A stretch of DNA of 64,000 nucleotides from Eledone cirrhosa (taxonomy: Eukaryota): contig OZ024747.1 of assembly GCA_964016885.1 (NCBI GenBank), forward strand, positions 69,564,001-69,628,000. The letters are read 5' to 3'. How positions within the stretch are numbered: position 1 is the first letter of the stretch; each line of letters begins with the position of its first letter. The notes beneath the pieces were generated by a model. That model had not been told where the DNA came from. It made no database searches and was given only the letters and a program-made list of their open reading frames with translations. Shown piece after piece: positions 13,837-45,567 of this stretch. The position numbers and the translations under genes are program-made.

Positions 13837-14210
13837 TATAATAAAATAACAGGAGGCTGGACTTGTGTAAATCCTTGAAAGGTTTATTATACTATGATCA
13901 TTTTAATGACCGGGTTCCGTATGAATCCGATGATATCATCAGGTATTATATTTCGAATACCTGATGATATCACCGGATTCATACGGAACCCGGTCATTGA
14001 AATGATCATAGTATAATAAACCTTTCAAGGATTTACACAAGTCCAGCCTCCTGTTATTTTATTATAATATTTAACTCCGTACTCGCACCACCAACTACAA
14101 AAACGAAGACGGTTGAACTGCTTTACGTTGAGTACTCTCCATAATATTACATCAAGATTGACCATACGGAATTGACCAGCTCTATCCAGTGGTGAACCTT
14201 CAAATCCGAA
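13837..14210. mobile_element. Foldback mini-element (111-bp inverted arms, 8-nt spacer, ~145-bp extension), probable PLE pseudo-LTR remnant
   Basis: Arms 13837-13947 and 13956-14066 are near-perfect reverse complements; CTGATGA core at 13961; TTGAGTACT in the extension; (TA)n flanks. Confidence 0.75.
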
Positions 14211-14278
14211 TATATATATATATATATTTAAAATGCTGGCGGAACAACAAAAGGTTTATGAATACATGTATATATTTA

Positions 14279-14467
14279 ATTATTTCTACTTTTGGCACAA
14301 GGCCAGCAATTATCCCAGTACATTACTGGTACTTTATTTTATTGACCCCGTAATGATGAAAGGTAAGTTAACCTTGGCGGGATTTGAACTCAGATCATAA
14401 AGGGCCGTAACTCTATGCTGCAAAGCATGGCGCCCGACCCTCTACCGATACTGCCAATCCACCGCCT
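14279..14467 (-). mobile_element. tRNA-derived SINE family A
   Basis: Reverse complement of family A consensus. Confidence 0.9.
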
Positions 14468-14475
14468 TTGTATAT

Positions 14476-15866
14476 ATCATCATCATCATCATTGTTTAAC
14501 ATCCATCTTCCACGCTTGCATGGGTTTGGACGGGAGTTTTCCCACCTGAGGCAAGATTGGTTGTCCTGCTCGTATAGGACTCACTGGCGGGTTTTCTACG
14601 GCTGGATGCCCTTCCTAACACCAACCACATTTACAGTGTGGACTGGGAAGTTTTTACCGTGTTACCTACACGGCCACATTACAGCATGGACTGTGTGTTT
14701 TTTTTTTGTCATGACACCTACACGGCCTCATTTGTTTCGGACTGGATGTTGTGGTACCAACATAACTTCACATTTAAGGGGGTGGTGTGGATGGAGTGGG
14801 GGTAGTGTGACGGGGGGGTGTATTTTGTTTGAGGTGCCTACTGACTGAAGGTTTCGCTTTGTACTTAGGCAAGGCGGGTCTTCTGTATAACTGTATAGCG
14901 CCAAAGCTCTCGGTCCAGTGACATTGTCTTGGAGAGGTGTGAGGTCGGAATTTATCAAGTCGGCCCAGGTTTTTCTGGGTCTGCCTACTCCGTGGCTACC
15001 GTCTATTTTTATCGCCCTGCACTTTTTTATACAGCTGTCGTCTTTCATGCGCATCACGTGACCATACCAACGTAGTCTTCTCTCGAGTATACAACATCTG
15101 ATCCCTCTTATTCCTAATTTCTTCCTTAGTTCGTTTATGCTTTGCATTTCACGTATATTACTATTACACATCCAGCGGAGCATGCAAGCTTCGTTTCTCT
15201 CCAGTCTGCATATATCCTCTGCACACAATGCCCAGGTCTCACTGCCATGTAACATTGCTGTTCGTATGCAGGCATCTTACAGCCTGCCTTTCATTTTTAG
15301 AGAGAACCCTTTAGCGGCCAATAGTGGTATAAGCTCTCTGAACTTTTTCCATCCCGTTCTGACTCTAGCAACTGTACTTTCAGAGCACCCTCCCCCACTG
15401 CTGATTTTTTCACCCAGGTAACGGAAGCTGTCCACTATTTCTATAGAACCATCTGTGCAATGGAATGAGTTAGTATTCTGTGGGCACTTGCTGCTACTTA
15501 TTGCACCAGAGCACCGGCCACATATAAAATCTATATTTTTAGTTAGCTTACCTGTGATCCCACTACATCTTTTATGCACCCATACTTTGCATTTGGGACA
15601 TAAAATGGAGTTTCTACCTACTCCTTTCCTACACACTGAGCATGGCCATTTCCCAGATGGGACCGGTGCCCTATTTTCCTTCCTACAAACTAGAAGTTTA
15701 GTCTTAGACAAGTTAACTTTAAGGCCTTTTGATTCTAGGCCATGCTTCCATGTTTGGAATTTCTTCTCTAGTTCAGCCATTGATTCAGCTATGAGTGTTA
15801 GATCATCTGCATATAGGAGTTCCCATGGGCAGCCGGTCTTGAACTGTTATAGCCTGAAGGGCAATA
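14476..15866 (-). mobile_element. 5'-truncated RTE LINE (RT C-terminal half, PHD insert, 3' UTR), with an in-frame stop and small deletions
   Basis: ORFs 15277-15780 and 14728-15255 are in the same frame separated by TAA; nearly identical in protein to 32330-34135; LLYADDL at about 15800-15820. Confidence 0.95.
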
Positions 15867-16050
15867 TATATATTTACATGTATATATTTAATGGCTAACC
15901 ACTTGATTCAAATATTGCACAGTGAGAGTGGACATTGATGTTATGATATCGTGTATCAATCGATATTAGTCCATTAAAAATATATGTCAATATCAATCTC
16001 AGAGCCTAAACAATTTTTTTTAGAAAATTAATTCATAAATTAAATCATAA

Positions 16051-16115
<65 letters not shown>

Positions 16116-16220
16116 TTGTTTAATAATGTTTCATCAAATCTTAACTATAATAGAGAAAGGAGTGCGGGATTGCGTCCAGAATATATTTTTTGTAAAATAA
16201 GTTGGATTACTTTGAATAAA

Positions 16221-16409
16221 TAATTGTTTCTACTTTTGGCACAAGGCCATCAAATACCCAGTACATTACTGGTACTTTATTTTATCGACCCCGTAAGGAT
16301 GAAAGGCAAAGTTAACCTTGGCGGGATTTGAACTCAGACCGCAAAGGGACGTAACTATGCTGGAAAGCATGGCGTCCGACCCTCTACCGATACTGCGAAG
16401 CCACCGCCC
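16221..16409 (-). mobile_element. tRNA-derived SINE family A with probable target-site duplication
   Basis: Family A consensus; TTACTTTGAATAAATAAT present on both sides (about 16207 and 16411). Confidence 0.9.
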
Positions 16410-16865
16410 TTTACTTTGAATAAATAATGAATGAATATTACATAATTTATCTAAATTTCGTAATTCTTGATTAAATATAAATAATTGTGTTGCTTATTCT
16501 AAAATTCACTTCTTTAAAATTTTCAAGTGTCAACACTTCCGGTTAGCGATCGCTTATATAAACATTCATATATTTCCGTCACTAATTTTTTTCCTAATGC
16601 AGTTTATATATAATATCGTCTTTTTTTTTAATGTATCATGGATTACGTTACTGATTACATAAGACAGTGTAACACAGTCTTCGTTCAATTTCTGTGTATA
16701 TTGTCAATTACAATTTTATTTGATGTATCATATCTACATGTATATATACTTGCGTATAATATCAATAAGCACACTACACATGCTAGTATTATTAATGTTT
16801 GATATGGAATAAAATATAGAATAAAATGTGAACATTCGTGTTATCTCATACATAATATATTTAAC

Positions 16866-17061
16866 AAATTTAATATAGAAATGGCTTCTACAGGACTACA
16901 GCTGTTTCATTCGAAGGAAATCATCAAGTCTTTCCTGATGATTTCCTTTGAATAAAACATTTCTAGTACTGTAGAAGCCATTTCTATATCAAATTTATTG
17001 TATACACTCTACTAATGTATTGAGTACCTTACTTACTTGTGTTACCCTGATTAAATCCAAG
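16866..17061. mobile_element. Foldback mini-element (~60-bp imperfect arms) with degenerate hammerhead motif and extension, probable PLE pseudo-LTR remnant
   Basis: Arms 16866-16926 and 16936-16996; minus-strand GAC-TTGATGA-TTTCCTTCGAAT-GAAAC-AGCT-GTA-GTC; TTGAGTACC in the extension; related fragment at 2637-2688. Confidence 0.7.
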
Positions 17062-17234
17062 ACACACACACACAGATATATATTAATATTTTTTTATTTG
17101 CCTACTTGTTTCAAACATTAAATTGTTGCAACACTGCCTTCGGTATTGAATAGATTTTTTTCAAGTTTTTATTTCAAGTAGTTATTTTATCAATAACCAT
17201 TTGTCAAACAATAATCACAGACACTCATACACAC

Positions 17235-17402
17235 ATACACAACAGTCTTCTTCAGAGTTTCCATTTTCCAAATATCTCTCAAGAAATTGGCCACTTGGGA
17301 CAAATGTTGAAGATTCTTTCCTAACGTGAACACATTGTAACTGAAACTGAAACCACTTGATTAGCAAGCAAATTCCTTAACCACACAACCATGTGTATGC
17401 CT
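17235..17402 (-). mobile_element. Degenerate tRNA-derived SINE (family C)
   Basis: Minus strand reads TGGTTGTGTGGTTAAG..TTGCT..GGTTTCAGTT..GGAAACT..GAAGAAGAC(TG)n. Confidence 0.55.
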
Positions 17403-17603
17403 CATATTACATACACACATGTGCACACACACGCATATAGACAGACACACACACACACACATATATATAATATATATATATATATATATGCATTTATATA
17501 TATATATGTATATATGTGTAAATATATATGTGTAAATGAAGTAATTCCGTCGGAAATAAATAAATAAATAAATAATAAATATATATACATATATATATGC
17601 ATT

Positions 17604-17656
<53 letters not shown>

Positions 17657-19329
17657 ATGTATATATGTAGGTATGAATATATATATATATATATGTGATA
17701 TTAAACAATGAAAGAATCAGATAAAATGCAATAGTTAATTAATCCATGGAGGGATTAATTAATTAACTACTACATTTAGTCGTCTTCTTTCATTCAGAGT
17801 TATATAACAATATACATCTGACTGTAATTCTGATTACTCATTGACATGTAATGGGATAGAATCATTCCACAAAAATAGATTTGACTTTGCTTCTATGGGA
17901 TATTCACAACTATATTACATGGAGTTCTAAAACGGTTATAAATCCTACCTTGATTAGGTACAACGCTTTTGAGTATAAATAAATATATATATGTGTAAAT
18001 TAGGTAGTAATGTGTGCTTACGCCATATTTGACAAAATAAAATTAGTCTATTTGTTGGGATTTAAAAAACCCTCTGAACGGAAAAAAGGATGTGTATTGA
18101 TGTACATGGGTCACGAACCCACATCTTTGGTTTGCCAGATCAATGTATTACCATTACACCAACACACCACCCATACCTCCCTCCATTCAATTAGAAGTTA
18201 TGTAACTATAGCAGGTATATATATATATATAAATAGGGAAACACAAAGTAGGCTTTGTTTACAAACAGCTAGCAAATTTGAAAATTAGGTAGTAACATGT
18301 GCTTATGCTGTATTTGATTAAATAAAATTAGTCTGTTAGTTGGGATTTAAAAAAAACCTGGCAAACCAAAGATGTTCGTGTCCCAATACTCATTCTTTTT
18401 CCATTCAGAATAATTTTATAAGTAATATTATTAACTTTCTCCTTATTTAGATGGTATTTTGAACATAAATGTCTCATATAAAATGAAAATGGAAGCTTTT
18501 AACATAAATATAAATATACCTAATCAAATTAAATTTTCATTAGTAATTCACAATATTTAAAGTGATTATATTACATCCCCCAACTTGGTTAAATCCTTTT
18601 TCATGTGTAAATCTTACTGTTTGCTACTTTTGCCTATTACAGAAGCATGTTGCACTCATTGATCTAACTTGAAACCCAGACATCCTTAGTTAATATCAAT
18701 GATATTTGGCACCACTGAAGAGGGAGTACTACTATAACAAGGTGCCGAATTTCTGTAATGTCCAGTGAATAGCCAATGATTGGAATGCCCAACTGGGTAT
18801 GCTCATTGTACAATGTTGTAAGAGAACAAAGCAGAATATTGGTGGAGATAATGTATCAGAAATATCTAAAATAAATGGTAGCATTGAAATATACTGACAA
18901 GGATAAAAGAATAATTTCTGCTATTATTTATTTTGGTACTGATGAATGAAAGTTTAAGCAATATACAATGTAAGAAAAATTATGTAAGATATCAGTATTT
19001 GAATGAATCTGTTATTTGCATCACAACAAATATTTGTAAATAGATCAATCAATATTTTGTAATAAAATACTTTTTGCCATCAGAGTAATTAAAACATGAT
19101 GTGATAAATAATACATTTTTCAATACTGAAAAACAAGCATGGAAAAATGGACTTAAAAACGAAGATGTTAAATTCTAATATTTTCCATTTTAGAATTCCT
19201 TTTATAGTGTCATTTCAACCAATTGATTAGATCTATAAGAAATGTTTTAAATTTGATGTTAAGAACCTAAGAGGTCCCCCACAGTTACATCGACATTTGT
19301 AGTGAACATCAGCAGCAGGTTTGCAGCAA

Positions 19330-19545
19330 AAAATACAGAACAATCAGTTTAATTAGTCACCCCTGTAAAGTACTGTTGAACAAATTTAAAGAAAAGGCAG
19401 AAGAAATCCTTACAGAAGAACAGGCAGGCTTCAGGCCCAAAACAAGTACAATTGAGCAGATATTTAACATCACACTGCTAACCAAGAAAGGTCTGCAACA
19501 CCAATCTGACCTCTACCATAACTTCATTGATTTCAAAATGATTCC
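19330..19545 (+). mobile_element. RTE LINE RT relic
   Basis: YRTISLISHPCKVLL..EEQAGFRPKTSTIEQIFNI..LYHNFIDFK. Confidence 0.85.
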
Positions 19546-20759
19546 AAGGTGCAGCAATGGAATCTAGGTACTATTTCTAAAAGATACAAAAGGGTTTGTC
19601 CATCTATCCTTTCCAATCATCATAGTATCAAAAACTATACAGCAGAGATATAAAAAGAGAAACAGAACAAATAAGCACACAACACACAAGTACTACACAA
19701 ATCAATAATAAACATTTTTTTAATTATAAATTCGAATGTTCGCATCTTTATCATCAGTTGGATCCTATGTTCAAATTTGACTTTTCAGTAAGTGGAGGGT
19801 CTCAACTAACTCTTGTTAGGGTGTCTAATGGAATCAGTTTCTGTGTCTCAACTCAGCCTCTCAGGTGCTCTCATTATGTTGTGGGTTTAGAGTCTGGCGT
19901 TGTTTAATGTAGGGGAACTATTCTCTATAGAATAGCCTTGCTAGTGCCTCATCATTGCACCCAGAATTTTAATTAAATAAGTTTGCAGCCAGCATAGATA
20001 TTATGGTGTGCAGGGTTGTAGAACTAAATTTATGGAGGGAATAACAAGCGGATTGGATGGTTTGTTGATTTCACAAATAAGGAAAAAACAATTTTAAAGA
20101 CGGATATCAGTGCCTATTACATCTGATATCTGATTTCTGCTAGATAAAGACCTCAGTTTAGCTAGAAAAATAACCATCTTAACCAAACAGAAAATAGACA
20201 TCATTCTAGTCGCAAGATGTGCTGTGATTGCATTTGATGGACATTACTGGACTAGGAAGATATGGATTTTTTATAACTATGGGATAGAGCAATTCTGCTC
20301 AGGTTATGGATCTCGTTTTTGCCATGACAAAGCTAAACATCCTACAGAAAAGCAACTCCATTAGTTTTCCAACAAATCTTAAATTCTCCCTGGTGACTTT
20401 CATTTTTCTTTATGGGTGTGAGAGTAGGACCTTTACAGCTGACATGGAACAATGAATACAGGTGTTTCAGAAGGCTGCGATGCATCCCTTACACAGAGCT
20501 CAAAACAAACAACTTTGGCAGGCATCAATTCAACAATCGTGCTGGCAATCAGGAATCAGGATTTAACAAAGTTGGGGGATGTAATATAATCACTTTTAAT
20601 ATTGGAAATCAGAACTTTTAGCATTACTTTACTGGGGTGGCTAATTAAACTGATTGTTTTGTAATTCTGTGTGCAAACCTGCTACCTTTGTTCACCTCAA
20701 ACATTGCTGCAACTGTGGGATCTATTTAGTTTCATTACATCAAACTTAAAATGTGTGAC

Positions 20760-21730
20760 ACTTTTCTTATTGATCTTTTTAAGCTTGAGCTTCAGTGTCA
20801 TCAGAACCAAAACATCATCCCTGCTGATATCCAGAGCACAGAAGGTCAGAGTCTGACCTTATTGATACTGAACTTGAACATTTGAGATAAAAAGATTAAG
20901 TCAATTTGGTTATGAAACCTGTGATGGGTGTATGCCATGTTTTCTACATGTTTGTGCAGGGGAATAGTGTCTTAGCTAGAGTTAGCTTGTGGGTGCTAGC
21001 AAATACTAGGATTCAGAGTCTAATCTCAAATTGTCCCAATATTCCTGGCCATAGGCACCTGAGCCTACTTTACATTCCAGTTTCCTAAGACAATGAGGAC
21101 ATATTTTTTAGGAGCTGTTCTGATGATCATTTCTAGGTCCTTGTGAAACTCTTCAACAATATTATTATAGTATTTAAGCATATATTTCTATGATGGTAAT
21201 GTTTTGTGGTTCTGCAGCTATGCATATGCTGATGAGCCTGTTGGATACTGGTGTACAGCTGATGACTGAGCTCACTCTGGTATTTTTAGTGATGAACCAT
21301 ATTCTTGGTTGGTGCTTGATGTCATCTATACTATACCACATTTTGAAGCCTTTATCGATAGTTGTTTCACCAAATCCAGTTCACATGACTTCAACCAGTC
21401 CTTAGATATCCCCTGGCTATCTGGTAAGTTTATGTATAAATTATTTCATCCTTCCACATACATACATGATGTGGACGGTTTTCAATGTGAGTGCCATTGT
21501 CATCACAGTCACAAAATGGTCACAGTTACCCAGTGGAATGACACTGGAGAGAGCAGCCATTGCTTTTTTGGGCCTTGAAAGATCAAGCATGTTATTTTTT
21601 ACTTTGTCTATCATGGCATTTCAGTAGGCCCTAGAAATGCTTGGTGGTGCTCATCTCCTCACCAAGCACTCAGTCCCTCATTAAGTTTAGCTTACTAACA
21701 GAAGTGTTTACCAGGGTAGGGTTTAAAATG
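20760..21730 (-). mobile_element. Decayed RTE LINE 5' part (UTR and APE endonuclease)
   Basis: Minus-strand fragments TGFGETT..KMWYS, SSVISCTPVSNRLISICIAAEPQNITIIEIYA, EEFHKDLE..LIVLGNWN, HNQIDLI. Confidence 0.8.
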
Positions 21731-21784
21731 TCTCAGTCAAAATTGAGAGACAGGCAAGAACCAGTGTACTAAAAAGAATGGAAA

Positions 21785-22060
21785 ATAATATGCATATCTT
21801 TTTTAAGGCCTATCAATAAATATTGTAAATAACTGCACAAAAGCTAACTTCTTAGATCTAACCTTAGAATTAGACTCAGAGCTCTATAGATACTGTCACA
21901 AACCCATAAAGAATTTGAATTATGTGCAAAGAATGTCTAATCAGCTAAGGCTAAGGCACACTGTTATCTAGGATATCTAAGTTGTCTATAAATGAGTATA
22001 TATTTAACAAAAATGCAGCACTAGCAAGTTCAGGCAATTGAGAAAAGATCACCTCTGTAC
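21785..22060 (+). mobile_element. Decayed Penelope-like RT thumb fragment
   Basis: KANFLDLTLELDSELYRYCHKPIKNLNYVQRMSNQ..ISKLSINEYIFNKN, homologous to 60140-60330. Confidence 0.65.
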
Positions 22061-24255
22061 CTAAGGTATCAAACAACACCATATCCTAAAGCCACAACAT
22101 AGTGAGAAAACCTAAGGGGCTGTGTGTAAGCAGGAACTAACACCTTTGGGCACACTGACAAGAGTTGGTTGAAGGCTGCCACTCCCTGAAAAGTTATATC
22201 TGAATGCAGGTACCAATAGAAGACAAGAGGAAGAAACTTGAATACTGTAGAATTTTGGAACGACTCCTTAGAACTTTGAAATCAATATAATAGTAATTAT
22301 GAAAAAAGTCTGTCAAGTTTTATTTGTTTTTAGTATAGCTATGAATTGACAGTGAGTTGCTCCATTCTCATAAGATGACAAGGAAACATGTCTGTTACTT
22401 TGAAAAATACTCACATGTGAAGGTTTGAATATTTACTAGTCTAAGAATGTAAAAGTGAGTTGCCCAATTGTGATTGAACTATGAAAGATGGATATAAAGA
22501 AAAGAGTAAATGTTACAGAGTGAAATTGGATGAAACAACCAGAGGTGAAAAAAAACAACTAATGCAAGATCCACTACATTGAACCTGCCAAGAATATTTT
22601 GTCATACATCGTTGTACCAGTGCCTTCAGTCTACATTTCCACAGACGAGCAAAGTCTCATTGATGGAATTACTTCATAAAATGAAGAAAGTAAAAAAAAA
22701 AAAAAACCTTATCTGTCATCAAACTAAACTATGATTACTGGAGAGAGAGTGAGAGAGAGAGGGAGTGAGAAAGAAGAAGGGAGAGAGAGAGAAAGAGAAA
22801 AGGAGAGAAATATTTGAATAAAATATTTATATGTTCTTACTAACACTAATTGTTTAACTGAGAAACAAGAAATATATCACTTTATTTCTATGTTGATGTT
22901 ACACCATCATCATCAGCCAATAATATGAACAACAACATGAACAACAACAACAACAACTCATTTTGAAATATTTCAGAACTGTTTGTGTCATTAAACTAAT
23001 ATGGAGAAATTATAACTGAATCTAACATGGAGAAAGAGATGAAAGGAATATGATGATGTTAGTTATGTATGAAAGTGGAAATCTTAAACCAAGCTTTTAA
23101 TTCGTGTCATGCAGTAGATATAATATTCTTTGGTATTTCAATATTACTTGATTAGTAACCAGACCTATGAGGAAAATTAAACCTCAGTAGTGAAATAACC
23201 CAGAGCCTCTTCCTTTCATCTCAATGCACATGTAGAGAACTTACAGTTGAAGGTTTTATGAAGGTAATTACATTTATGTATATTATCTTACACATTAGCA
23301 TTTCATATCATTATTACAATTTAGCCAATTTCCTTGAACATTTTGCAAGAAAAAAACTGATAAGAGTTGCTGTTATTTTATTCATAGTAACATGAGGAAT
23401 TAAGCAAGGAATTATTTTATTTGTTCTAATTTGGGATGAAAGTAATAAAGCAAAGATTTAGTGTGTATTTGATCTCAAGAGGATTTGGGGAATGCTTTGC
23501 AAGTAAGACAGTTTGCTTGGAGGAGAAAAATAACAAAGGCTTGACCAATTTGGCCATCTGTTTGAAGATGGATTTTATTCTGCATTGACAGCCTGAAATG
23601 TTTTATAAAAGGGTTGTTGAATTAATGCTGACCATAAGAAAAGTGTCAAATTCTTACTCAACATGTTACCAATTTCAGTATAATGTCTGCTTGAAGACAT
23701 ATTGTTGCTGGTGGTAGTAGGAAACCATCACTGTTATTGTTTTAATAGATTTCAAATGTTATGACTAAGGGATCACTGATAAATTTTGCTAGTAATTCTT
23801 TTGTATACAGTTGCCAGCAGCAAACACAAAATGGTGCATGACTCACTGGAACCAAACTGTGTTTGTGTCAATACAAAGAGAATACCCACTAAGTAAAAAG
23901 ATGTCTTGTAATTGATCTTTTCACTGATCTTGTTTTTCAGAAGTTCTAAATATTGCCTTAGAGTCCAATATTCCAGAGTATTTAGGGAATAACGAATGTA
24001 ATTTTGTACTGAAATTGACATAAATTTCATTCAACTATATTAAACAAATGTGAAAGACAATTTTCGCGGAAAATAACATTTGAATAATTTCAATTATACT
24101 TTTGTTGTAAGTAAAATTAAGAAACAAATAATTCTAACGCACAATTTTTTTTATTATATATATGTGTATGTGTGTGTGTATATATATATAATTTTTTTCC
24201 GTTTCTGCCATTGCCCATCTCAATCTTTCTATTTCTTCTTTAATTTTTCATTCTA

Positions 24256-24292
24256 TTTTCTGATGATGGACTAACATTCGAAACGTTAAGAA
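24256..24292 (+). ncRNA. Minimal hammerhead ribozyme-like motif
   Basis: TTTT-CTGATGA-TGGA ctaaca TTC-GAAACGTTA-AGAA; palindromic AACGTT at stem III; inside a TA-flanked ~190-bp island. Confidence 0.45.
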
Positions 24293-26188: not shown

Positions 26189-26224
<36 letters not shown>

Positions 26225-26227
<3 letters not shown>

Positions 26228-26422
26228 GGAAAAAGAATGACCCCGACGGCAGAGCTCAAGCCGTTTCGACAGCTATTTCCAGATTTCCAGAAATTGCTGT
26301 CGGAACGGCTTGAGCTCTGCCGTCAGGGTAATTCTTTTTCCTATTACCCACTCTACTACACTTAGTATTGATTACTTTGGTGCGTTATTGTCCATCTGGT
26401 TTCTTACCACATTTCCTTTGTT
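26225..26422. mobile_element. Foldback mini-element (55-bp arms) and extension; solo terminus of the PLE family at 59.7-61.3 kb
   Basis: Arms 26225-26279 and 26290-26344; right arm plus extension resembles the reverse complement of 59730-59866; (TA)n on both sides. Confidence 0.8.
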
Positions 26423-26587
26423 ATATATATATATATAGTAATAATAATAAATTTGAAGACTGAAATCCAAAGAGGGCTCGATAAGGATAAATATATATCA
26501 AATATATAAGACATATATATATGTGTGAATGTTTAAGTATGTATATATGTATATACACACACACACACATGCGTGCATATGCATATA

Positions 26588-32052: not shown

Positions 32053-32056
32053 TATG

Positions 32057-32104
<48 letters not shown>

Positions 32105-32297: not shown

Positions 32298-34640
32298 AGG
32301 AAAACCGTGATATTGTCGGGGAGAAGTGTGTGCTTAACGATGATGGCATACTTGCCATCACCGACGCTGATAAGAAGGTAGCTTGGAAGTGTCACTACGA
32401 AAGGCTTCTAAATGAGGAGAACAAATGGGAGAAAGACAGTCTCCCCCACATCGACCCAATAGAGGGACCAGCAGTGTTAGTCCAGGGTAGTACAATAAGC
32501 AAGGCAATCAAAGATATGAAGACGGGTAAGGCGGCTGGTCCTTCGGAAATAGTTGCTGAGATGCTGAAGGCATCTGGTTCGGTGGGACACACCATGGTCA
32601 CCCGGATAGTTAACCAAGTCGTACAGAATGGGGTTGTTCCGAAGGACTGGCGTAGCAGCATCATCGTTAACTGCTATAAGGGAAAAGGAGATGCCCTAGA
32701 TAGGAGTAACTATAGAGGCATTAAATTAATCGACCAGGTCATGAAGGTCACGGAAAAAGTAATAGCGCAACTAATCAGAGAGAGAATTGATCTAGATGAA
32801 ATGCAGTTCGGGTTTGTGTCAGGCAAAAGTACCACAGACGCTCTTTTCATTGTACGACAACTACAGGAGAAGTACCTAGCTAAAAGTAAACCCCTATACT
32901 TAGCTTTCGTCGACTTGGAGAAAGCCTTCGACAGAGTCCCCCGCTCCATTATCTGGTGGTCTCTTAGAAAACTAGGTGTTGACGAATGGCTTGTGAGAGC
33001 TATACAAGCCATGTATAAAGAAACAGTCAGTAAGGTTAGAATTAACAACGAATATAGTGAAGAGTTTAGCGTAAAAGTTGGTGTCCATCAGGGCTCTGTT
33101 CTTAGCCCCCTACTATTTATTATTGCCCTTCAGGCTATAACAGAGGAGTTCAAGACCGGCTGCCCATGGGAACTCCTATACGCAGATGATCTAACGCTCA
33201 TAGCTGAATCAATGACCGAACTAGAGAAGAAATTCCAAACATGGAAGCACGGCCTAGAATCAAAAGGCCTTAAAATTAACCTGGCTAAGACAAAAGTTCT
33301 AGTTTGTAGGAAAGAAAATATGGCGGCAGTCCCATCTGGGAAATGGCCATGCTCAGTGTGTAGGAAAGGCGTAGGTAGAAACTCCATTTTATGTCCCAAA
33401 TGCAAAGTATGGGTGCATAAAAGATGTAGTGGGATCACAGGTAAGCTAACTAAGAACATAGATTTTACATGTGGCCGGTGCTCTGGTGCAATAAGCAGCA
33501 GCAAGTGCCCACAAAATACTAGCTCCTTCAACTGCGCAGAGGGTTCTATAGAAATAGTGGACAGCTTCCGTTACCTGGGTGACAAAATCAGCAGTGGGGG
33601 AGGGTGCTCTGAAAGTACAGTAGCTAGAGTCAGAACTGGATGGAAAAAGTTCAGAGAGCTTATACCACTATTAGCCGCTAGAGGGTTCTCCCTAAAAATG
33701 AAAGGCAGGTTATACGATGCCTGCATACGAACAGCAATGCTGCATGGCAGTGAGACCTGGGCATCGTGTGCAGAGGTTATACGCAGACTAGAGAGGAACG
33801 AAGCTTGCATGCTCCGCTGGATGTGCAATAGTAATATACGTGAACAGCAAAGCATAAACGAACTAAGGAAAAAATTAGAAATAAGAGGGATCAGATGTTG
33901 TTTACTCGAGAGAAGGCTACGTTGGTACGGTCACGTGATGCGCATGAAAGACGACAGCTGTATAACAAAGTGCAGGGCAATAAAGATAGACGGTAGCCAC
34001 GGAGTAGGCAGACCCAGAAAAACATGGTACGAGCTGATAAATTCCGACCTCACACGCTTACACCTCTCCAAGACAATGTCACTGGACCGAGACCTTTGGC
34101 GGTACTCAGTAATAGAGAAGACCCGCCTTACCTAAATACAAAGTAAAAACCTACTACAGTCAGTAGGCATCTCTATCAAAACACCCCCCCGTCCCACCAC
34201 CTCCACCCCATCCACACCGCCCCTTTCAATGTACAGTTATGTTGGTCCCACAACATCCAGGCCGAAACAAATGAGATCGTGTAGGTGTCACGACAAAAAA
34301 ACACACAGTCCACGCTGTAAATGTGGCCGTGTAGGCAACACGGTAAAAACCTCCCAGCCCCACACTGTAAATGTGGTTGGTGTTAGGAAGGGCATCCAGC
34401 TGTAGAAAACCCGCCAGACAGTCCACGCTGTAATGTGGCCGTGTAGGCAACACGGTAAAAACCTCCCAGCCCCACACTGTAAATGTGGTTGGTGTTAGGA
34501 AGGGCATCCAACTGTAGAAAACCCGCCAGACAGTCCTATGCGAGCAAGACAACCACTCTTGCCTCAAGTGGGAAAACCCCCGTCCAAACTCATGCAAGCG
34601 TGGAACACGGACGCTAAACCTGATGATGATGATGATGATG
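32298..34640 (+). mobile_element. Young 5'-truncated RTE-clade LINE with repeat-containing 3' UTR and (GAT)n tail
   Basis: Intact RT frame, ~500-bp 3' UTR with duplicated ~112-bp unit, (TGA)n tail, TA microsatellite on both sides. Confidence 0.95.
32300..34135 (+). CDS. RTE LINE reverse transcriptase (endonuclease domain missing), with C4HC3 PHD-like insertion
   Basis: [70 protein letters not shown]; frame open from the microsatellite junction. Confidence 0.95.
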
Positions 34641-34901
34641 ACATATGTGTATATATATATGTGTATATATATATATATGTATATGTATATATGTATATAT
34701 ATATATATGTATATATATATATGTATATATATATATGTATATATATACACATATGTATATATATATATGTATATATATATATTTACACACACTCCAGAGT
34801 AATAAATCTCACTATTTAGCCTTAATAAAATGATATATATATTTACAAATTTCTCCTCACCCTTGCCTGTTTTTCCTAATTAAAAATGTTATACTATATA
34901 T

Positions 34902-35190
34902 ATCATCATCATCATCATCATTTTTCCATGCTAGCAGGGGTTAGATGAGTTGTCCTGTTGTGAGAAATACCAGGTCAGGTGACCATGTCTTGCTCATACA
35001 GAACTGATTTTGGCTTGGTTTCTACAGCTAGATACCCTTCCTAACACCAACCACATTTACAGTGAATACTAGGTGCTTTTTGTCACGATACCTACACAAC
35101 CACTTTACAGTGTGGGCCGGATGCTTTGTGTTGTGACACCCACACAATCACATTACCATGTGGGCTGGGTGCTTTTTATCATGACACCTA
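34902..35190 (-). mobile_element. Older RTE 3' UTR fragment
   Basis: (CAT)n, CCATGCTAGCA, CCCTTCCTAACACCAACCACATTTACAGTG and degenerate subunits. Confidence 0.7.
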
Positions 35191-37027: not shown

Positions 37028-37216
37028 TGGTGGATTGGCAGTATCAGTAGAGGGTTGGAGGCCATACTTTGCAGCAAAGAGTTACGGCCCTTTATGGTCT
37101 GAGTTCAAATCCCGCCGAGGTTAACTTTGCCTTTCATTCTTATGAGGTCGATAAAATAAAGTACCAGTAATACACTGGAATAATTTCTGGCCTTGTGCCA
37201 AAAGTAGAAACAATTA
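37028..37216 (+). mobile_element. tRNA-derived SINE family A
   Basis: Family A consensus; TTATCTAATG on both sides (likely TSD). Confidence 0.9.
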
Positions 37217-37458
37217 TCTAATGTGTACTCTCTTCTTTTAGGGTGTGATTTGAAAATGATTTGACTGGTATTTCTAGTAATGGTAGTTAATGTTAATGTA
37301 AAAGTATTTGTTGTGATAGTTGCTCATATAGTATTACTATGATTATTGTCTTTGATGATACAATGTTCATGATGATTATGATGATTATGAGGGAGAGGAG
37401 GAACATTTCTTTCTATGGGAGAAGTCCAAACAGATTTTATAATAAGAATTGTTTCTGG

Positions 37459-38064
37459 ATAATTTGAAGGGGAGGGGAAAGTCGATTAAATCAACCCCAA
37501 TGCATTACTGGTGCTTTACTTATCGACCCTGTAAGGATGAAAGGCAAAGCTAACCTCAGTGGGATTTGAACTCAGAACATAACTCTCTGTCGTGAAGCAG
37601 GGTGTCCGATGCTCAACAGATACTACCAATCCACTACCCTAATAAAGATTTCTAGTATAGGCTCAAGGCCAGTAATTTGGTGGGAGGGGAAAGTCAATTA
37701 AATTGATCCCAGTACGTTACTGGTGCTTTATTTTATCGACCCCGTAAGGATTAAAGGCAAAGTTAATTTTGGCGGGATTTGAACTCAGACCATAAAGGGC
37801 CGTAACTCTATGCTGCAAAGCATGGCATCTGATCCTCTACCATTACTGCCAATCCACTGCCCTTATAATAATAAAGATAATAATTGTTTCTACTTTTGGC
37901 ACAAGGCCAGCAATTATCCCAGTGGTACTTTATTTTATCGACCCCGTAAGGATGAAAGGCAAAGTTAACCTCGGTGGGATTTGAACTCAGACCATAAAGG
38001 GCCGTAACTCTTTGCTGCAAAGCATGGCGTCCAACCCTCTATCGATACTGCCAATCCACCGCCC
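37459..38064 (-). mobile_element. Head-to-tail array of three family A SINEs
   Basis: Copies at about 37459-37640, 37647-37863 and 37881-38064, separated by AATAAAGAT(AAT) linkers. Confidence 0.9.
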
Positions 38065-38081
38065 TAATAAAGATAATAATA

Positions 38082-38690
38082 AGGCAGTCTCCATTGAGAA
38101 GATTGTGTGGAGTAACAGGAGAAGAGGTGACCCACATAGTGCATGTTGTGTATTAACTAAAGTGCACAAAGGGAGACATGATAATATCATGCAAATTGTA
38201 CATTGGAAACTATGTGGAAAGTTTGGGCTGGAGAGATCCAAATTATGGAGCACAAACCTAAGGCTATGCTGGAAAATCAAAGTGTGAAGCTTTTATAGGA
38301 TTTCAATATTCAATGTGATGAGAATATCACAGCAAGACGATGATCTGATACTGGTAGACAACGAAAGAAAGCATTGTCTCTTGATTGGCATAGAAATATC
38401 TGGAATTGACAAGGAGGATGAAAAAAGGAAATCAAGTAAGTTTGGGAATTAAATAGAGTGTAAGTTATTCTGGTAATTGTTGGAGCTTTTGGTGTCATGA
38501 TAAAAATTATGCAAAATTGGTGTTAAAATGTGTACAAAAGACTGCACTCCTGGGAACAACCAGAATTTTGAGAAGGTACAACAAATATAGTGGTTGATGA
38601 AATGTTGGACCCTTGGTCATTTGTTATGACTTGCTCCTGCAATGTAATTTTGATGACTGAGGATCAGTCTGAGTATGAGGAAATAATATG
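38082..38690 (+). mobile_element. R4/Dong-type (restriction-like endonuclease) LINE 3' relic
   Basis: RLCG..VTHIV, KGRHDNIMQIVHWKLCGKFGL, DFNIQCDENITARR.DLILVD, VIVGAFG, QKTALLGTTRILRR. Confidence 0.8.
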
Positions 38691-38709
38691 ACCTTAAGAC
38701 TTGATGTGA

Positions 38710-39052
38710 AGTTTCATGGATTAGTGGTTAAGGAATAGGGCCTGCAATCGTGAGGTAAGTTTGATTCCTGGACCAGGCTGAGCATTGTGTTCTTGAGCAA
38801 AATACTTTGTTTCACATTGCTCCAGTTTACTCTGCTGTAGAAATGAGTTGTGATGTGACTGGTGCCAATTGCCAATCTGTATTGGCCATTGCCTTTCCCT
38901 TGGACAATTTCAATGGTGTGGAGAGAGAAAACCGGTATACATGGGTGACTGCTGGTCTTCTACAAACAATACCTTGCCTGGACTTGTGCCTCAGATGTGA
39001 ACTTTCTAGGTGCAAATCCCATGGTTATTCGTGACCAAAAGGGGTCTTTACT
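38710..39052 (+). mobile_element. tRNA-derived SINE family B
   Basis: TGGATTAGTGGTTAAG, GTTTGATTCC, TGTGTTCTTGAGCAAAATACTTTGTTTCAC. Confidence 0.7.
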
Positions 39053-41921
39053 CTAAGACTTGATCAAGAGTAAATATAGCTTTGTATGTTAATGTTTTAA
39101 CTGAAGCAACTGTTCAGTGAATGTGCTGACTTGCAAGAGAGCTACATTTATTGCCTTACTATTGTTTTCATTACCATTGTTGTTATTTTCTGTAGTTTTT
39201 TGTTGTATATATCAGTCCTATTTTCCTGTTTCACTGCTGTAATGCACCATGGCATTACTGGTGTTACCAGTACACATTTATTACATTTAATCTACACACT
39301 TATTACATTTAATGGCATACATTCATGATAGACAACAGCTTTAGCATCACTGCTAGCACAGCTGTCATGGACCCCACACATTGTCCTCCTCTTCAAACAT
39401 CAATTATGTTGACATCTTACATAAATATATTTCTTTGTTGGGTGCATCTGAAAGGTAAAAATAACTATATCTCTCATAATTAGGTTAGACAGAGTTTTTA
39501 AGCCCTCATTTTCATAGAAATATCTTAAAACAGTTTCAATGATAAACATTTTTATCATTGAAACTAAGTTTACAAATTACACTATAAAATTATGGAGTAG
39601 TGATGTTTATGGTTAAGAAAGCTCAGCTATAGTAGTAATAAATCCTTTTTGTTACAATTGAGACAGATGAGAGGTCATTAAAATGATAAATTACAAAGAC
39701 TGCAAGGTTTTAAGATTATTGTGAAAAGGCTGACATGGTAAACAACAACATACAAAAGGAATTAAATGAGAGATCCCAAAAGAAGGACAGTTACTTAAAA
39801 TCAACCATGGAACCCCATAAGCTCTAGAATTTCCCTGTCAACAAAGGGTAAATGCCTTCTCAAAGTTGTGTTATCCATTCAACAAGTGCAAATCACATGG
39901 ACCAGTCTTGAACCCCCCCCCCCCCACACACACACACTTTTCTGCTAATTCGGTGGAGAGCAGCAGATCTTTCTCTATCTCTCTATATCTCTCTCTACCT
40001 TTACCATCCTCTGCAAGTGACACTGGCAGTTGATTCAGCTTGGCTGAACATGAAGGTGTCTGTCTTCAGTCCTTTCAAGTCTGTCCACAATTCTACCTCT
40101 TTGTCATAACCCTCAGATATGCACTTATGATGATAATTGTTGAAAATATCTCTATCATAGCAATGGAAACAAAAATGCACCCCATAAACAAACATTTCTG
40201 TCAAGACTCTACATAGGGGATATGCAAACATATTTAGACAATGATGACAAAGAATCATAGAACAGTTCTGATTTTCAAAGTTAAATCATTGCATTCTAAT
40301 AGGAGAGCTATTGTATGGGTGAAGGGGAACAATATAAATAATAGCTATGTTGAAGAGCTAACTACAAAAAATAGATGACTTGTTTTCTACAGTGGTCTCT
40401 GTATTCATTTTAAGCAAGCAATAACATACTTTTAGCTTGTAGCATCACAATGATGGTTCAAATTATAATTAGTGACACAATCTTCCTATAGTTCCTATAA
40501 TACTTCTCATACCATAGGGATGGTACTGGAATCTGTGTATGGAAACTGAGTAGTGAAATCAAATTTGACTACACCTGCTTCAAGTATTAATATGTGGGGA
40601 TGTGGTTGTATGTTTTGACACATATAGAACATATATGGTGTTGAAGCTGGATACTAAGTAAAAATGATGTTGATTTACTAGCTTGCTGGTTTTGCTAAGA
40701 AAATGAATGACAAGCACATGATAAGGAAATGTTACCCCCCATTAAGAGGAAAGCATGTCAACATGTTGAATAATTACACTTTAGCCATGAAAAACACCAG
40801 AGAATTCCATTTAGTCATTGCTAATACACTAAAGGTTCACAATCATATTTGCTGCATTCTTGATATAATTAATGTAATATTATGCTTTGCCAATATTTCT
40901 TGGAATAGCTAAGCAAATACTTTTCTGAATCACAAAACCTCTAGAGCCATTGTTTATCTCTAGTTTCAGTAATGCTAAATAGATGAGAGACGAAATATCT
41001 CATGGATAGAAATACTGGTCTATTGCATGTAGCTTTCACCTGTCAGATAAATTGAACTCAACAGGGCTACTGGCTATTGAAGTATTTGTCAACTCTTTCA
41101 TATTTTTGCTATTTACAGAAATATATTGTATTAGCTACTCAGAACTTGGTGAATTTACAAGCGATGTGTCATGGGTTTGGACATGAAAATGCTGGAGTTA
41201 GAATATGAACCAAAAAACCATTGATTGGTTTGCCAGCACACTACTCTTAAACTGGTCATCGATACTTTTATTCCTTAGCAACATTGTTCATTATGATGGT
41301 GATACTTGGTTCCAGGTTAATGAACAATAGTGACCCGTGATCAAAATTGTTTGACCCATGACCATCTCAACTGTTTAATTATTTACAGGATTACATTTTT
41401 TTCTATATATATTTAATTTGATAAGATATGATTTGAGAGCAATTTGCCTGTCATTTATCAAAGGTTTTGCAATCATGTACAACTTATTTGCTACAGGGTA
41501 AGTTTGTGAAATAGTCAGGATATATTCTTTTACATTTTTACTGGTTTCTGTCATTAACCTTTTGCCATTAACCTTTTGTTAATCATTTTGAGCTCAGTAT
41601 ATATTTTGTTTAGTCTAAGACTTATTTTACCACTCTCTTTACTGTTGAACCACTAAGTTATATGACATAATAATGAATATGGTGAGCAATGAAAAAAACA
41701 GGCTTCTGACTTTCGTTTATATCTGAGTAACATGATGATACTAATAATGAACTTACTTATAGCACATCTATTAATATAAAAACTACTTAATATTATTATA
41801 GGTTTTAAACTGTCTATTTTTCTCTCTCCATAATGAACAAAATGCTACGATCGTACTATTGTTTATCGTATGCTTGCACGAAAAAACCATGGCCCTGTGC
41901 CTCATAAGCCTAAAAAAGTAC

Positions 41922-42005
41922 TATTGGGTTGCCAAGTATGAAATTTATAGTAATTTGTAGAAAAAAAAGCAAATTTCCACAAATTTCATACTTGACGACC
42001 TAATA
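41922..42005. mobile_element. 84-bp mariner-derived MITE (MADE1-like architecture)
   Basis: TA-TTGGGTTGCCAAGTATGAAATTT ... AAATTTCATACTTGACGACCTAA-TA. Confidence 0.75.
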
Positions 42006-44502
42006 CTTCACTGTAATTACCACTCTCTACCTGTATTCACTTAGCCTGCTTTCTTTCAATGCTTGCCTATATTCATTACTTGCTAATGTACTTGATATGT
42101 GTTTGTGTTGAATTCAATCCTTCTAAGTGATCCTGATGATCTGCAGGGGTGTTTCTATAATATGTGGATAATTAGTAATAACTGATTAAATCATTTTTTG
42201 CATATATATATGCAAGCTTCTCACCTGTATAGAAACGATTGTAGAGATTAAAGTTGGATTTAATTTTAAAATCTTGGTTTTCTTCAATTCAAATATTTAT
42301 GCTCATTTGCTCTAACCATCTTTAATAGCAAGAACTTTAACCTTCAGTAGACTATTTCGATAGTTTCGAATCCCTACTTGCTGAAGCATGCTTTCAGCTT
42401 TTCACACCTTACAAAAACTAATAGTGAAATAATTACACACACACTCATCCATGACTACATTGTTATCTTCCATATTACCTGGTGTCGAAGAGGCTACTTT
42501 TTTTCCTAAAATACATCTCAAAAATCTACCATGCGTCCTGGAGGCCGAAGGTTGTTCATTATTTTTTTTCAAATTTTTGGTTGTCACAATTAGGCTCCTC
42601 GAGGAAAAAGCATCTTCGGCATCGAGAGATATGGTAATATGTCCTTATAATGGAAGGATGTAATTTGAGAAAATCTGGCTGTTACTTTCATTAAGTCTTT
42701 GATGCTGGTGTCTTAGAATGGAAAGAACAGACAATAAATAGAATATTTTATTAAACAGAATGGTAAACTATCTGATATTTGGACCAAACAGTTGCTCATC
42801 ATTGACTCTTTAGTCCTGAATGGAAAAAATACTGACATTTTCAGTTTTCTGAAACATACAAGTTAATACTTGTCGTATGTGATTCTGAAAAGAATATAAA
42901 TATGGTTAAAATAAAGATATTATGTTTAAATTTAATTAATATGGCAAAATATATGAGAGAAAGAGGGAAAGGAGGAGAGAGAGAAGGTAATAATAGAAAG
43001 GGAAAGAAGAGAATTTAAGAAAATTGCAATGATTTGCATATGACACAAGAGTTAGTGATACAAGTAAGGTATAGATTCATTGTGAGATAACAGGCGAGTT
43101 TGGGGGAAGAATAAATAAATTAAATTATGGTGGTAGATGTTTAAATAGGATCTGAAAACCTTACATTTTCATATGGAAAAAAAACTTAATGAAGAAGAAC
43201 AGAGACAACTGGTGTTTGGTGATGTTTTACCAAGGAAAAGTAATTTCTCTGAAGATTATGATGGTGATTGTGATGATTTCGACCATTAATGATATAATGA
43301 TGCACATAATGACAACAATGATTAGAATGCTGATAAGGAAAATGATAAGAATAAGGGTTATGATGATTCTGAAGATGGTGATGCTGAGGAGGATAATTAT
43401 TTGAGGAGGAAGATCATGATGTTGAAAATGATAATTATGACAACAACGATGTTGGTGGTGATGATGATGATGAGGAGGATAAGGATGATGATGAGGAGGG
43501 GGCAATTTATCACAGTCAAACGTGCCCTTTTGATTCCTTTTGTATTTCCAGAAAAGAAATTGTTTTCCTAGGTTTATTTTTAAGGATAGCAACTTTTTAT
43601 CATCTGGAATTATTCAGTGATTTTCTTGGATCTATCTGATTATAAAATGAATATCAATAGCATTAGGCTTCAGAAGAATGTACTGTTGCCATGCAAGCTG
43701 TTACCATGTTTTCTCTCTTTGTTTTCACCCCTTTCCACCCTCCGTAAAGCTTACTGAACTTTCTCCATCATAAAACAGCTTCTTTGACCAATGTAAAATA
43801 TAGCCATATCTCTCCAATGAACAGAGCTAATCATGTACATAAGAAAACCCAACAGCAATATCATCACCCCCACTATCACCACCACAAATACCTTCATGAT
43901 CACCATTACAAGTATCACCACCACAAACACCATCAGAAATATCATTGCCACTGTCATCACCTTAACCCCATGTCCTACCTTCACCAACACCACCATCAGC
44001 ATTTCCAGCAGTATTATCACCATATCTTGCAACACCACCACCACCACCACCAATATCATCATTGGAAATAATAATAATACAGTTTTATTAAGGATCAAAC
44101 ATGTGTGCAATAACATTTGGAATGGCTACCATTAATGTATAACCAGTGAGTTGGTTAACTGATTCTTCTATGTCTAGATGCATCTAAAGTATTAACTTTG
44201 AGTAAAATGATAAAACAATGCTGAAAATATTTCTTGATTAGATTTCTTACTGCTCATAGGAGTATCAATGGTCAAAAGTATATTTGGGGAATCATCACCA
44301 TCATTGTCATGATGGTGATGATGACGATGATGATGATGATCATCATCATCTGCAGTAGCAGCAGCAAGCTTTATTCTGACTAGCTTGATATCACAGACAT
44401 CATCCAGGTTTACTTCCAATTTTTGATGTTTGTGTGTGTGTGGAGATGATGGCTACATATCAGTATATTAGCCTTTTATCCTGTGACTCTTCAGTGAAGA
44501 TA

Positions 44503-44505
<3 letters not shown>

Positions 44506-44553
<48 letters not shown>
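44506..44553. repeat. (TG)n microsatellite
   Basis: Direct reading. Confidence 0.95.
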
Positions 44554-44554
<1 letters not shown>

Positions 44555-44711
44555 TTCAGAGAAGATTTATGAAGGAAACACTGAAATGAAAAGGTAATAA
44601 TGAACTGAAATAATTGAAAAAGAAATCTTTCCCAGGATTCTTTCATTATTTTTATATATATATATATATGTATAAAAGAAGAAATTAAAAGATGGTTAAA
44701 GAAGTTCCATA

Positions 44712-44781
44712 TATTTTATTATGCACATTTCGAAAACAACATCATCCTGGGACAAAAATTGTGTTCTCATCAGATAAAATA
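44712..44781 (-). ncRNA. Minimal type-I hammerhead ribozyme (antisense copy)
   Basis: TATTTTAT-CTGATGA-stem II-GAAA-TGTGCA-TA-ATAAAATA on the minus strand. Confidence 0.6.
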
Positions 44782-44853
44782 AGGTAACATGATATGAGGC
44801 CTAAAAACACTTGTCAACAGGAAAGTGTTTTTAGGCCTCATATCATGTTACCT

Positions 44854-44923
44854 TATTTTATCTGATGAGAACACAATTTTTGTCCCAGGATGATGTTGTT
44901 TTCGAAATGCGTATAATAAAATA
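44854..44923 (+). ncRNA. Minimal type-I hammerhead ribozyme
   Basis: Stem I TATTTTAT/ATAAAATA (8 bp); core CTGATGA 44862-44868; stem II GAACACAA/TTGTTTTC; GAAA 44904-44907; near-palindromic stem III ATGCGTAT; predicted AUA cleavage after 44915. Confidence 0.65.
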
Positions 44924-45567
44924 TATGGAACTTCTTTAACCATCTTTTAATTTCTTCTTTAATATATACTCCAGTTCTACCAACTGTTGAGTGCTACTTA
45001 TCTGATATGTGCATAGTTTTATTGTTCTACAATATTACTCACCTTCTACATATATAATATATATGAGAAAGAGAGAGAGAGACACTCCACATGCATGCAC
45101 ATACACACACACATGTTTTGAATGTTCATTTTTATTTCCTATCTACATTTGATATTTTAAGAACAAGAAAGAAAGAGTGTGTGTGTGTTTGTGTGTCTGT
45201 TTGTTTGTGTGTGTGTTTGTGTGTGCTTCAGTTGTATAATGTCCTCTTTCCACCATAAGTACATAAAAATCAAATACAATACATCCAGGCTGCTGTTATT
45301 ACAATACTGTTTAGCCTGACTTATTGCACAACGTACCATTGAAAAGGTGTGAACATCTGCCAATCTACAAAATATGTTTAGGGTGTGCTAAATCTATTTT
45401 GTTGCTTCTAATCTATACATTTACTAAATATGCAACATGCCATATTTTCGCTTGAGAAGTTGTGGTTAAGAATCATACAGTAGTTTCAATAACCACAGCA
45501 TCAAAAATAGTTACTACATTAATAGTAACAATAACAAGAACAGCAACTATAACAAAACAATAACAAT

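Follow-up and report, generated by a model that had tools for sequence, protein, structure and literature searches.

Lopsided inverted units in TA microsatellites of Eledone cirrhosa as probable 5'-truncated Penelope-like insertions with a shared tail hairpin

Hairpin units in the window

The DNA analysed here, referred to as the window, is the 64-kb stretch C7:69564001-69628000 of the 3.0-Gb genome of Eledone cirrhosa. It contains four units (13837-14210, 16866-17061, 26225-26422 and 44675-45050) in which a hairpin on the left is followed by an unpaired extension on the right, all on the + strand and flanked on both sides by (TA)n or (CA)n. Each unit is the 3' end of a high-copy repeat family (F1, F2, F3 and F4, respectively), and these families very probably consist of Penelope-like elements (PLEs) and their non-coding passengers. 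An earlier note on this DNA had counted five units; four of these are real, while the fifth, at 17706-17975, is a different repeat that is described with the other elements of the window.

The units were delineated by a palindrome scan of the window in which microsatellites were set aside. The scan returned 111-nt arms with an 8-nt loop at 13837-14066 (extension ∼139 nt), 61-nt arms with a 9-nt loop at 16866-16996 (extension ∼65 nt) and 138-nt arms with a 10-nt loop at 44675-44960 (extension 82-90 nt). The mismatched unit at 26225-26340 (locus L063) was recovered by BLAST instead, with arms of ∼55-60 nt that are 88% identical, mismatches close to the loop and an extension of 78-82 nt. In eight shuffles of the window no hairpin outside low-complexity sequence scored 20 or more, compared with three in the real window, scoring 33-130; the 26225 unit escapes the strict seed used in this control.

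In each unit an inverted copy ends at a fixed internal position of the element, designated P, and stands head to head with a direct copy that continues across a fixed tail and stops at its far end, designated T. P is the element position at which the outer end of the inverted copy falls. The features of the units, together with those of a smaller related unit (family F6), are as follows.

13837-13947, - strand: F1 inverted, tail-less, 5'-truncated copy (left arm); outer end at P beside (TA)n; spans -132 to -250 from the 3' end (L001)
13956-14066, + strand: F1 direct copy body (right arm), by direct reading and palindrome scan
14067-14205, + strand: F1 tail, 132-137 nt across the family
ACTC 14074-14077 to GAGT 14130-14133, + strand: F1 bulged hairpin, inner stem CGTA/TACG, 42-nt loop
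16866-16926, - strand: F2 inverted tail-less copy (left arm), by palindrome scan and BLAST
16936-17061, + strand: F2 direct copy to 16996, then tail 16997-17061, by genome search and BLAST
ACTC 17006-17009 to GAGT 17022-17025, + strand: F2 hairpin, inner stem TAC/GTA; R1 covariance-model match 17002-17029, 36.8 bits
26225-26282, - strand: F3 inverted tail-less copy (left arm), spans -78 to -133 (L063)
26286-26422, + strand: F3 direct copy plus 78-nt tail, ACTC at 26350-26353
TTGATT 26368-26373, + strand: F3 hairpin 3' half, mutated in the window copy; family copies read TTGAGT
44675-44812, - strand: F4 inverted tail-less copy (left arm), reaches -244 (L151)
44823-44960, + strand: F4 direct copy body, by direct reading
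44961-45050, + strand: F4 tail, 82 nt by BLAST ends
ACTC 44968-44971 to GAGT 44989-44992, + strand: F4 hairpin, inner stem CAGTT/AACTG; R1 match 44964-44996, 28.4 bits
3771-3803, - strand: F6 inverted tail-less copy, 33 nt from P; matches the left arms of L181 and L189
3804-3868, + strand: F6 direct copy truncated inside its own tail, last 66 nt only; TTGAGTAC at 3815-3822

The F6 sequence had previously been described as an isolated extension. It is genuine and related to the others, but more than a bare extension, as a 33-nt inverted tail-less copy is joined to the last 66 nt of the tail, and these two halves do not overlap. Other F6 copies found by genome search match only query positions 33-98 of 3771-3868.

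Repeat families with fixed 3' ends

A genome-wide search with each extension returned 2694 first-look candidates for F1 (top matches 97-99% identity), 1575 for F2 (89-96%), 2226 for F3 (91-93%) and 1705 for F4 (98-99%), numbers that are not copy numbers. Together with the 90,691 first-look candidates for the F4 protein discussed below, they bear out the earlier suggestion of a very large class. Thirty loci were sampled per family and each was mapped against one long genomic copy. The F1 counts given here derive from this mapping; BLAST hairpin calling missed some F1 hairpins, including that of the window itself.

The outer end of the inverted copy falls at P in 11/30 F1 loci (132-137 nt before the 3' end), 18/30 F3 loci (75-79 nt) and 13/30 F4 loci (82 nt), and in these 42 pairs from 90 loci the inverted 5'-truncated copy directly adjoins its partner. 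The outer end lies at 97-100 nt in three more F4 loci and elsewhere in a few loci of each family; in F2 it is 51-58 nt from the query end, plus ∼13 nt further. Within a family the length of the extension is fixed and the turn point of the hairpin is variable, ranging from about -116 to beyond -1000, and the tail, which measures 51-137 nt across the families, is present at one end only. Loci that lack an inverted copy (13 in F1, 10 in F3 and 12 in F4) form 5'-truncation series. Fixed 3' ends, variable turns and truncation series are the behaviour of a retroelement and not of a miniature inverted-repeat transposable element (MITE). Arm-to-arm identity in the BLAST hairpin calls is 76-100%, with 76-96% in F2, mostly 88-97% in F3 and 81-100% in F4.

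Two further features of these families were observed. In the independent loci L002 and L007 the F1 tail continues past T into the same sequence (CTAAATAAATAATGCTCCTGAAATGTTGAGCAC...), which suggests either read-through or a start further downstream. F4 includes a short subfamily of ∼255 nt that occurs only in direct orientation and has its own ATATGTAGGTTTTG-like 5' head after (TA)n (L094, L098, L099, L150 and L160); it is likely a non-coding passenger.

A bulged hairpin shared by the tails

According to the earlier note the units share no obvious primary homology. This is true of the arms but not of the first 30-60 nt of the extensions, which start alike in the different families with a UA-rich patch, ACTC, a short variable stem and loop, and TTGAGT(A/G)C. 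The motif is not enriched across the window, in which TTGAGTAC occurs 4 times versus 2.41 expected (25/100 shuffles reach 4) and TTGAGT[AG]C 6 times versus 4.4 ± 2.0. Four of the six TTGAGT[AG]C sites fall within an extension that leads up to a microsatellite. The 26225 unit carries the motif in mutated form, as TTGATTACT, and 43 motif matches in the sampled loci were assigned to F3.

The shared TTGAGTRC sequence, which includes TTGAGTAC, provides the UU bulge and the 3' half of a predicted RNA hairpin, ACUC-(3-7 bp)-loop-(3-7 bp)-UU-GAGU. The hairpin starts 0-10 nt behind P, a range that reflects the TA-rich ends. When the window and the sampled loci are taken together, an ACTC-type half and an inner stem of at least 3 bp are found upstream of 176/241 TTGAGT[AG]C sites, compared with 6/227 in controls displaced by 400 nt, consistent with the view of the earlier note that several families have a cis motif in common. 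The inner stem reads CGTA/TACG in F1, TAC/GTA in F2, TACT/AGTA in F3 and F6, and CAGTT/AACTG in F4, while a fifth family, encountered as a bystander, displays CAA/TTG and CAG/TTG. Further inner stems are TGCTCT/AGGGCA, TGTTTAG/CTAAACA and CAG/CTG.

A covariance model of the hairpin (R1) was built from six rows in the same register; MAFFT had set the 5' halves of the hairpins in two registers. R1 identified 109 sites in 435 kb (55 distinct rows), and 96.6% of the cells in their alignment are paired. Hardly any variation is seen in the four outer pairs, and the three inner pairs change on both sides (UA 31/CG 20; AU 46/GC 5; CG 25/GC 10/AU 6). The covariation score is 0.338 compared with 0.140 in shuffles, none of 500 of which reached 0.338, and controls in which the alignment was slid gave values of at most 0.18. 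Compensatory changes in at least eight families support the predicted hairpin, and this conserved element likely marks the position at which the copying enzyme starts. Literature searches did not find a description of the bulged hairpin, the nearest structure being the ‘AC-rich stem loop' of Frangieh et al. (PMC11167929).

Hammerhead-like cores

Upstream of P, F1, F4 and, in part, F2 can be read as containing candidate hammerhead-like cores that comprise CUGAUGA, a long helix II and GAAA, together with a helix III of 2 bp whose cap is a palindromic 4-nt loop (GAUC, GCGC or AGCU), 60-100 nt before P. Two are located in the window.

CTGATGA 13961-13967, GAAA 13999-14002, palindromic TGATCA 14003-14008, + strand: F1 hammerhead-like core, by reading
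CTGATGA 44862-44868, GAAA 44904-44907, + strand: F4 hammerhead-like core, by reading

The CUGAUGA, long helix II, GAAA and short capped helix III are features of the minimal hammerheads of metazoan PLEs, as presented in the part of Cervera and de la Pena 2014 (PMC4209133) that was available. In contrast to those ribozymes, the cores predicted here by reading are not detected by Rfam, and F3 is without one in its last 340 nt. The E-value mode of Rfam, applied to the units, returned only sub-threshold miRNA-like matches.

An autonomous source for F4

A long F4 copy contains an open reading frame (ORF) that ends in a GIY-YIG-type domain, ∼1.6 kb upstream of the 3' end. From the first-look candidates of the genome search with this ORF 97 were scored, 26 of which lie in an open 821-aa frame that represents a sister subfamily. 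The 821-aa frame (L137 328-2793) contains FIQFDIASYYSSI, YRDDG and FLDVSL, which we take to be reverse transcriptase (RT)-type motifs. Other marks read in this ORF are DKT (HSDKTNN), CxCX5C (CNCRIKNKC), CxxC (CNLCLNEK) and CxH (CLH). Section 11 of Craig et al. 2021 (PMC8557442), a paper that was available in part, gives as marks of the Hydra clade DKT rather than DKG, the CxCX5C linker, CxxC, CxH, RWK and no CCHH; the RWK position reads RLRWTAY in the 821-aa ORF. The nearest database proteins are 30-42% identical and unnamed, with the exception of one mislabelled Argonauta hians entry, which points to a cephalopod host. Atlas neighbours of the ORF carry GIY-YIG, RVT_1 and HTH_animal, which serves as a lead only, and Pfam searches of three homologues did not reproduce their precomputed HTH_animal/DUF8422 labels. 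An endonuclease (EN) fragment in long F3 copies is 32% identical to that of F4 by BLASTP (E 2e-17).

In L137 a pseudo-long terminal repeat (pseudo-LTR) plus tail (81-311) precedes the ORF (328-2793), and a 3' pseudo-LTR (3969-4118) ends at P (4118), giving a unit of ∼3.9 kb from the start of the tail to P. This layout shows that the tail is internal to the full-length element, between pseudo-LTR and ORF. Judged by its sequence, F4 traces to an intact 821-aa ORF with putative Hydra-clade PLE marks. The earlier proposal of PLE-type insertion into (TA)n holds up, as the F4 3' region lies behind an RT/EN-type ORF and the units match the published insertion signature.

A coding partner was not found for F1 (∼1.2 kb, no ORF) or for F2 (≤430 nt, no ORF), and both families look like passengers. 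A 927-aa ORF family (L200 and L201), which is F3-type and autonomous, shares no 3' untranslated region (UTR) with F3 and shows no R1 hairpin, and the autonomous partner of F3 proper was for this reason not found. RVT_1 and zf-RVT matches in L042 and L059 were considered as the coding part of F2 and rejected, as they belong to neighbouring long interspersed elements (LINEs). LINE-type RT ORFs (RVT_1 and zf-RVT) stand beside PLE stubs as unrelated neighbours at L042 2101-3087 (-), in L130 (F1a) and at L059 1-1357.

Formation of the inverted pairs

The architecture of the units is the published, already known signature of PLE insertion (PMC8557442 and PMC11167929). Craig et al. (PMC8557442), in the part of the paper that was available, describe PLEs as heavily 5'-truncated, with partial tandems that give rise to pseudo-LTRs, with an inverted 5'-truncated copy directly upstream and a 30-40 bp tail at one end, and with (TA)n targets in Naiad and Hydra. 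Frangieh et al. [quoted passage not shown] Very probably, the units described here are 5'-truncated Penelope-like insertions, of Hydra-type elements and of non-coding passengers, in TA microsatellites, and likely arose through two RT starts on opposite strands.

The relationship between the two arms was explored by using the F4 arm upstream of P as a genome query. Of the 30 hits, 13 enter the tail, one includes part of it and 16 end at P, abutting a microsatellite. Nine of these 16 tail-less copies have an adjacent inverted partner that bears the tail, and one is ambiguous. In L144, L150 and L160 the tail-bearing partner measures only 24, 48 or 89 nt, and is the tail alone or nearly so; partners of this size cannot have templated the other arm. 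Across the 42 pairs, 27 are symmetric within 20 nt, 9 have the longer inverted copy and 6 the longer direct copy. F3 turn points cluster at about -125 to -150 but differ nucleotide by nucleotide, which argues that each hairpin formed independently and was not copied from a hairpin master.

In the proposed mechanism one cDNA (complementary DNA) would be primed at T on one nicked target strand, a second would be primed at P on the opposite strand, and the two 5'-truncated cDNAs would then be joined end to end, producing symmetric hairpins when both reach the same RNA 5' end. The bulged hairpin may position the enzyme, while the UA-rich patch just 5' of it could pair with the (TA)n primer. Two starts, at T and at P on opposite strands, followed by joining, would fit the longer inverted arms, the arm sequence that is not shared and the stop at P.

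A different route to an inverted pair is snap-back, in which a single cDNA primed at the end of the tail folds at its own 3' end and copies itself; the template fold-back proposed by the earlier note is of this kind. Snap-back would explain the symmetric majority of the pairs and the junction gaps of ∼0-10 nt. A self-copy is, however, expected to cross the tail, yet in 42 pairs the inverted arm ends at P, and in the 9/42 pairs with the longer inverted copy the product exceeds its supposed template. Furthermore, neither the 24-89-nt partners, which are almost all tail, nor the 3771 unit shares sequence with the arm that would have been templated. Snap-back is thus already contradicted as a general route, and is an unlikely explanation for the units.

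It is more improbable still that the units are copies of a few non-autonomous fold-back masters that were themselves hairpin-shaped. The turn points of F3 cluster at roughly -125 to -150 and those of F4 near -243, as such masters would produce. The F3 turn points and loop letters nevertheless vary copy by copy, turn points as a whole span -116 to beyond -1000, and the F4 cluster coincides with the 5' end of the short subfamily that occurs only in direct orientation. In some copies at least, L070 and L084 among them, the two arms also carry the same subfamily variant.

A reading as ordinary MITEs or foldback DNA transposons, which are bounded by terminal inverted repeats and TA target duplications, can be discounted almost entirely: inverted arms and TA flanks do exist, but the unpaired 51-137-nt tail is on one side, the point at which the arms meet is internal and varies, fixed termini that enclose a fixed internal region are lacking, truncation proceeds from the 5' side against one fixed 3' end, and the same 3' ends are found on an RT/EN-coding element. 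Symmetric terminal inverted repeats were not seen at both ends, and a target duplication is unreadable within (TA)n. Assembly artefacts from palindromic chimeric reads are just as remote, for while PLE structures of this sort are noted to trouble assemblies in the available part of Craig et al. 2021 (PMC8557442), arm identity here is 76-100% and lower on average in older families, and dozens of hairpin loci lie on many contigs, each with its own flanks, amid the thousands of first-look candidates (1575-2694) per tail family.

Several observations weigh against the two-start interpretation or the evidence on which it is built. Tails are present on both arms in three pairs (L007, L026 and the overlapping loci L043/L060, which constitute one pair), three of the 16 tail-less F4 copies have no visible partner and three run off the locus, and the symmetric majority (27/42) is also expected from snap-back. 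BLAST ends near the TA-rich P are uncertain by up to ∼10 nt. With respect to the hairpin, the covariance alignment was fitted to the model structure and many of its rows are related, the folding energy is no better than that of shuffles (z-scores of -1.0 to +0.35), and R1 found no hairpin in the 927-aa ORF family (L200 and L201; 6.5 kb, E ≤ 10). A GCTC...TTGAGC element that follows T is weak and was observed in just two families, among F4-type full-length copies and in two F1 read-through copies. Rfam, in gathering and E-value modes, detected no hammerhead in the units, L137 or L031, and by reading the CUGANGA core is absent from the last 340 nt of F3. In the 821-aa ORF Pfam detected neither an RVT nor a GIY-YIG domain, ORF pieces gave nothing useful, and the RT/EN assignment consists of motif reading, one BLASTP comparison and the Atlas neighbours.

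The two-start interpretation can be extended to a broader and rather doubtful proposal. Every RT start in Hydra-type PLEs and their parasites might be set by a bulged hairpin (NCUC-stem-loop-stem-UU-GAGN) that is immediately preceded by a UA-rich landing patch; one hairpin of this kind would follow P and another T. The lopsided mirror insertions would then be the fossil record of a dimeric enzyme that starts at both sites of one RNA, one for each cut strand of the TA repeat.

Additional structures were recorded at these junctions. The F3 turn points have a hot zone (L063-L092) just 5' of a GCCGT-CGAA-ACGGC palindrome. The possibility that they represent a hammerhead cut site was rejected, as the sole candidate site lies ∼15-25 nt downstream of the hot zone and F3 is without the core. 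A 3'-3' junction between two tail-less copies occurs at P in L132 (3970-4265), and there are large head-to-head pairs that turn inside the ORF (G000 C12:2135630-2138186 and similar).

Comparison with known elements

As far as the available part of Craig et al. 2021 (PMC8557442) goes, the units resemble the insertions of EN-containing PLEs in 5' truncation, the adjacent inverted truncated copy, the one-sided tail, pseudo-LTRs and insertion into (TA)n, which hides any target duplication. They differ in tail length, 51-137 nt compared with the published 30-40 bp, and in the hairpin, as that text describes none in the tail and the word ‘hairpin' has 0 hits in it. Likewise, the F4 source shares with the Hydra clade, as outlined in the same part of PMC8557442, a single ORF, the C-terminal GIY-YIG-type domain, DKT, CxCX5C, CxxC, CxH, (TA)n targets and an aquatic invertebrate host. 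In contrast, its unit is ∼3.9 kb, whereas Hydra elements are generally <3 kb, the RWK motif reads RWT, and the hammerheads are assigned by reading only.

The closest mechanistic parallel is Poseidon of Anolis (PMC11167929). As proposed here for E. cirrhosa, its RNA has two internal start sites on either side of the tail, both strands of AT-rich targets are cut and extended, and initiation takes place in an AC-rich stem-loop that follows the hammerhead, where pseudo-LTR and ORF meet. Poseidon belongs to another clade, its tail is shorter than those reported here, and it was characterized by assay, whereas the evidence presented here comes from genomic copies. The start site of Poseidon PAc has no homology to the cut DNA, while the E. 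cirrhosa tails appear to have a sequence-conserved bulged hairpin after a UA-rich patch that would be able to pair with the primer. The short non-coding passengers recall the non-LTR retrozymes (bioRxiv 10.64898/2026.07.22.740005), which in the portion of that preprint available also share PLE ends.

So far one in vitro study, of a vertebrate Poseidon element, has addressed the mechanism by which PLEs form the tail and their inverted or tandem ends. The E. cirrhosa genome is rich in young insertions and has an apparently intact autonomous source, and the shapes of its insertions provide a natural test of that study. Tails on one arm, pairs in which either arm is the longer and partners that consist of tail alone are in accord with two starts on two strands, carry this picture over to another clade and speak against simple snap-back. 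The conserved start-site hairpin is the one lead that goes beyond the literature, and supplies a defined RNA target for mutagenesis. In genome annotation, units of this kind should be masked as the ends of PLEs and not called MITEs or miRNA-like hairpins.

Other elements in the window

Besides the units described above, the window contains a further PLE pair and the unrelated repeat already mentioned.

59731-61537, no single strand: further PLE pair, by BLAST and reading
17706-17975, + strand: older, different repeat family, outside the class, by genome search

In the PLE pair, a 209-nt tail-bearing F3-like copy beside (TA)n (59731-59939, -) is joined head to head at ∼59940 to a copy with RT and EN remnants (59945-61077, +), whose 3' UTR extends to ∼61537; the 3' end of this long copy (59945-61537) was not found. 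The 17706-17975 sequence does not belong with the units, as its family is older (73-84% identity, 107 first-look candidates) and TA repeats do not follow the other copies of that family; the motif region of the window sequence is TTTGAATACTCAATGAC-like.

Weak PLE ORF remnants were detected by tblastn (E 1e-4 to 3e-13) at 2239-2597 (-), 20137-20256 (+) and 21807-22071 (+). A tRNA-like match of 44 bits lies at 18098-18168 (-). A short repeat recurs at 14290-14350, 1790-1944, 12877-13145, 34307-34575 and 63140-63293, is also present in the flank of the F2 reference, and is probably a short interspersed element (SINE).

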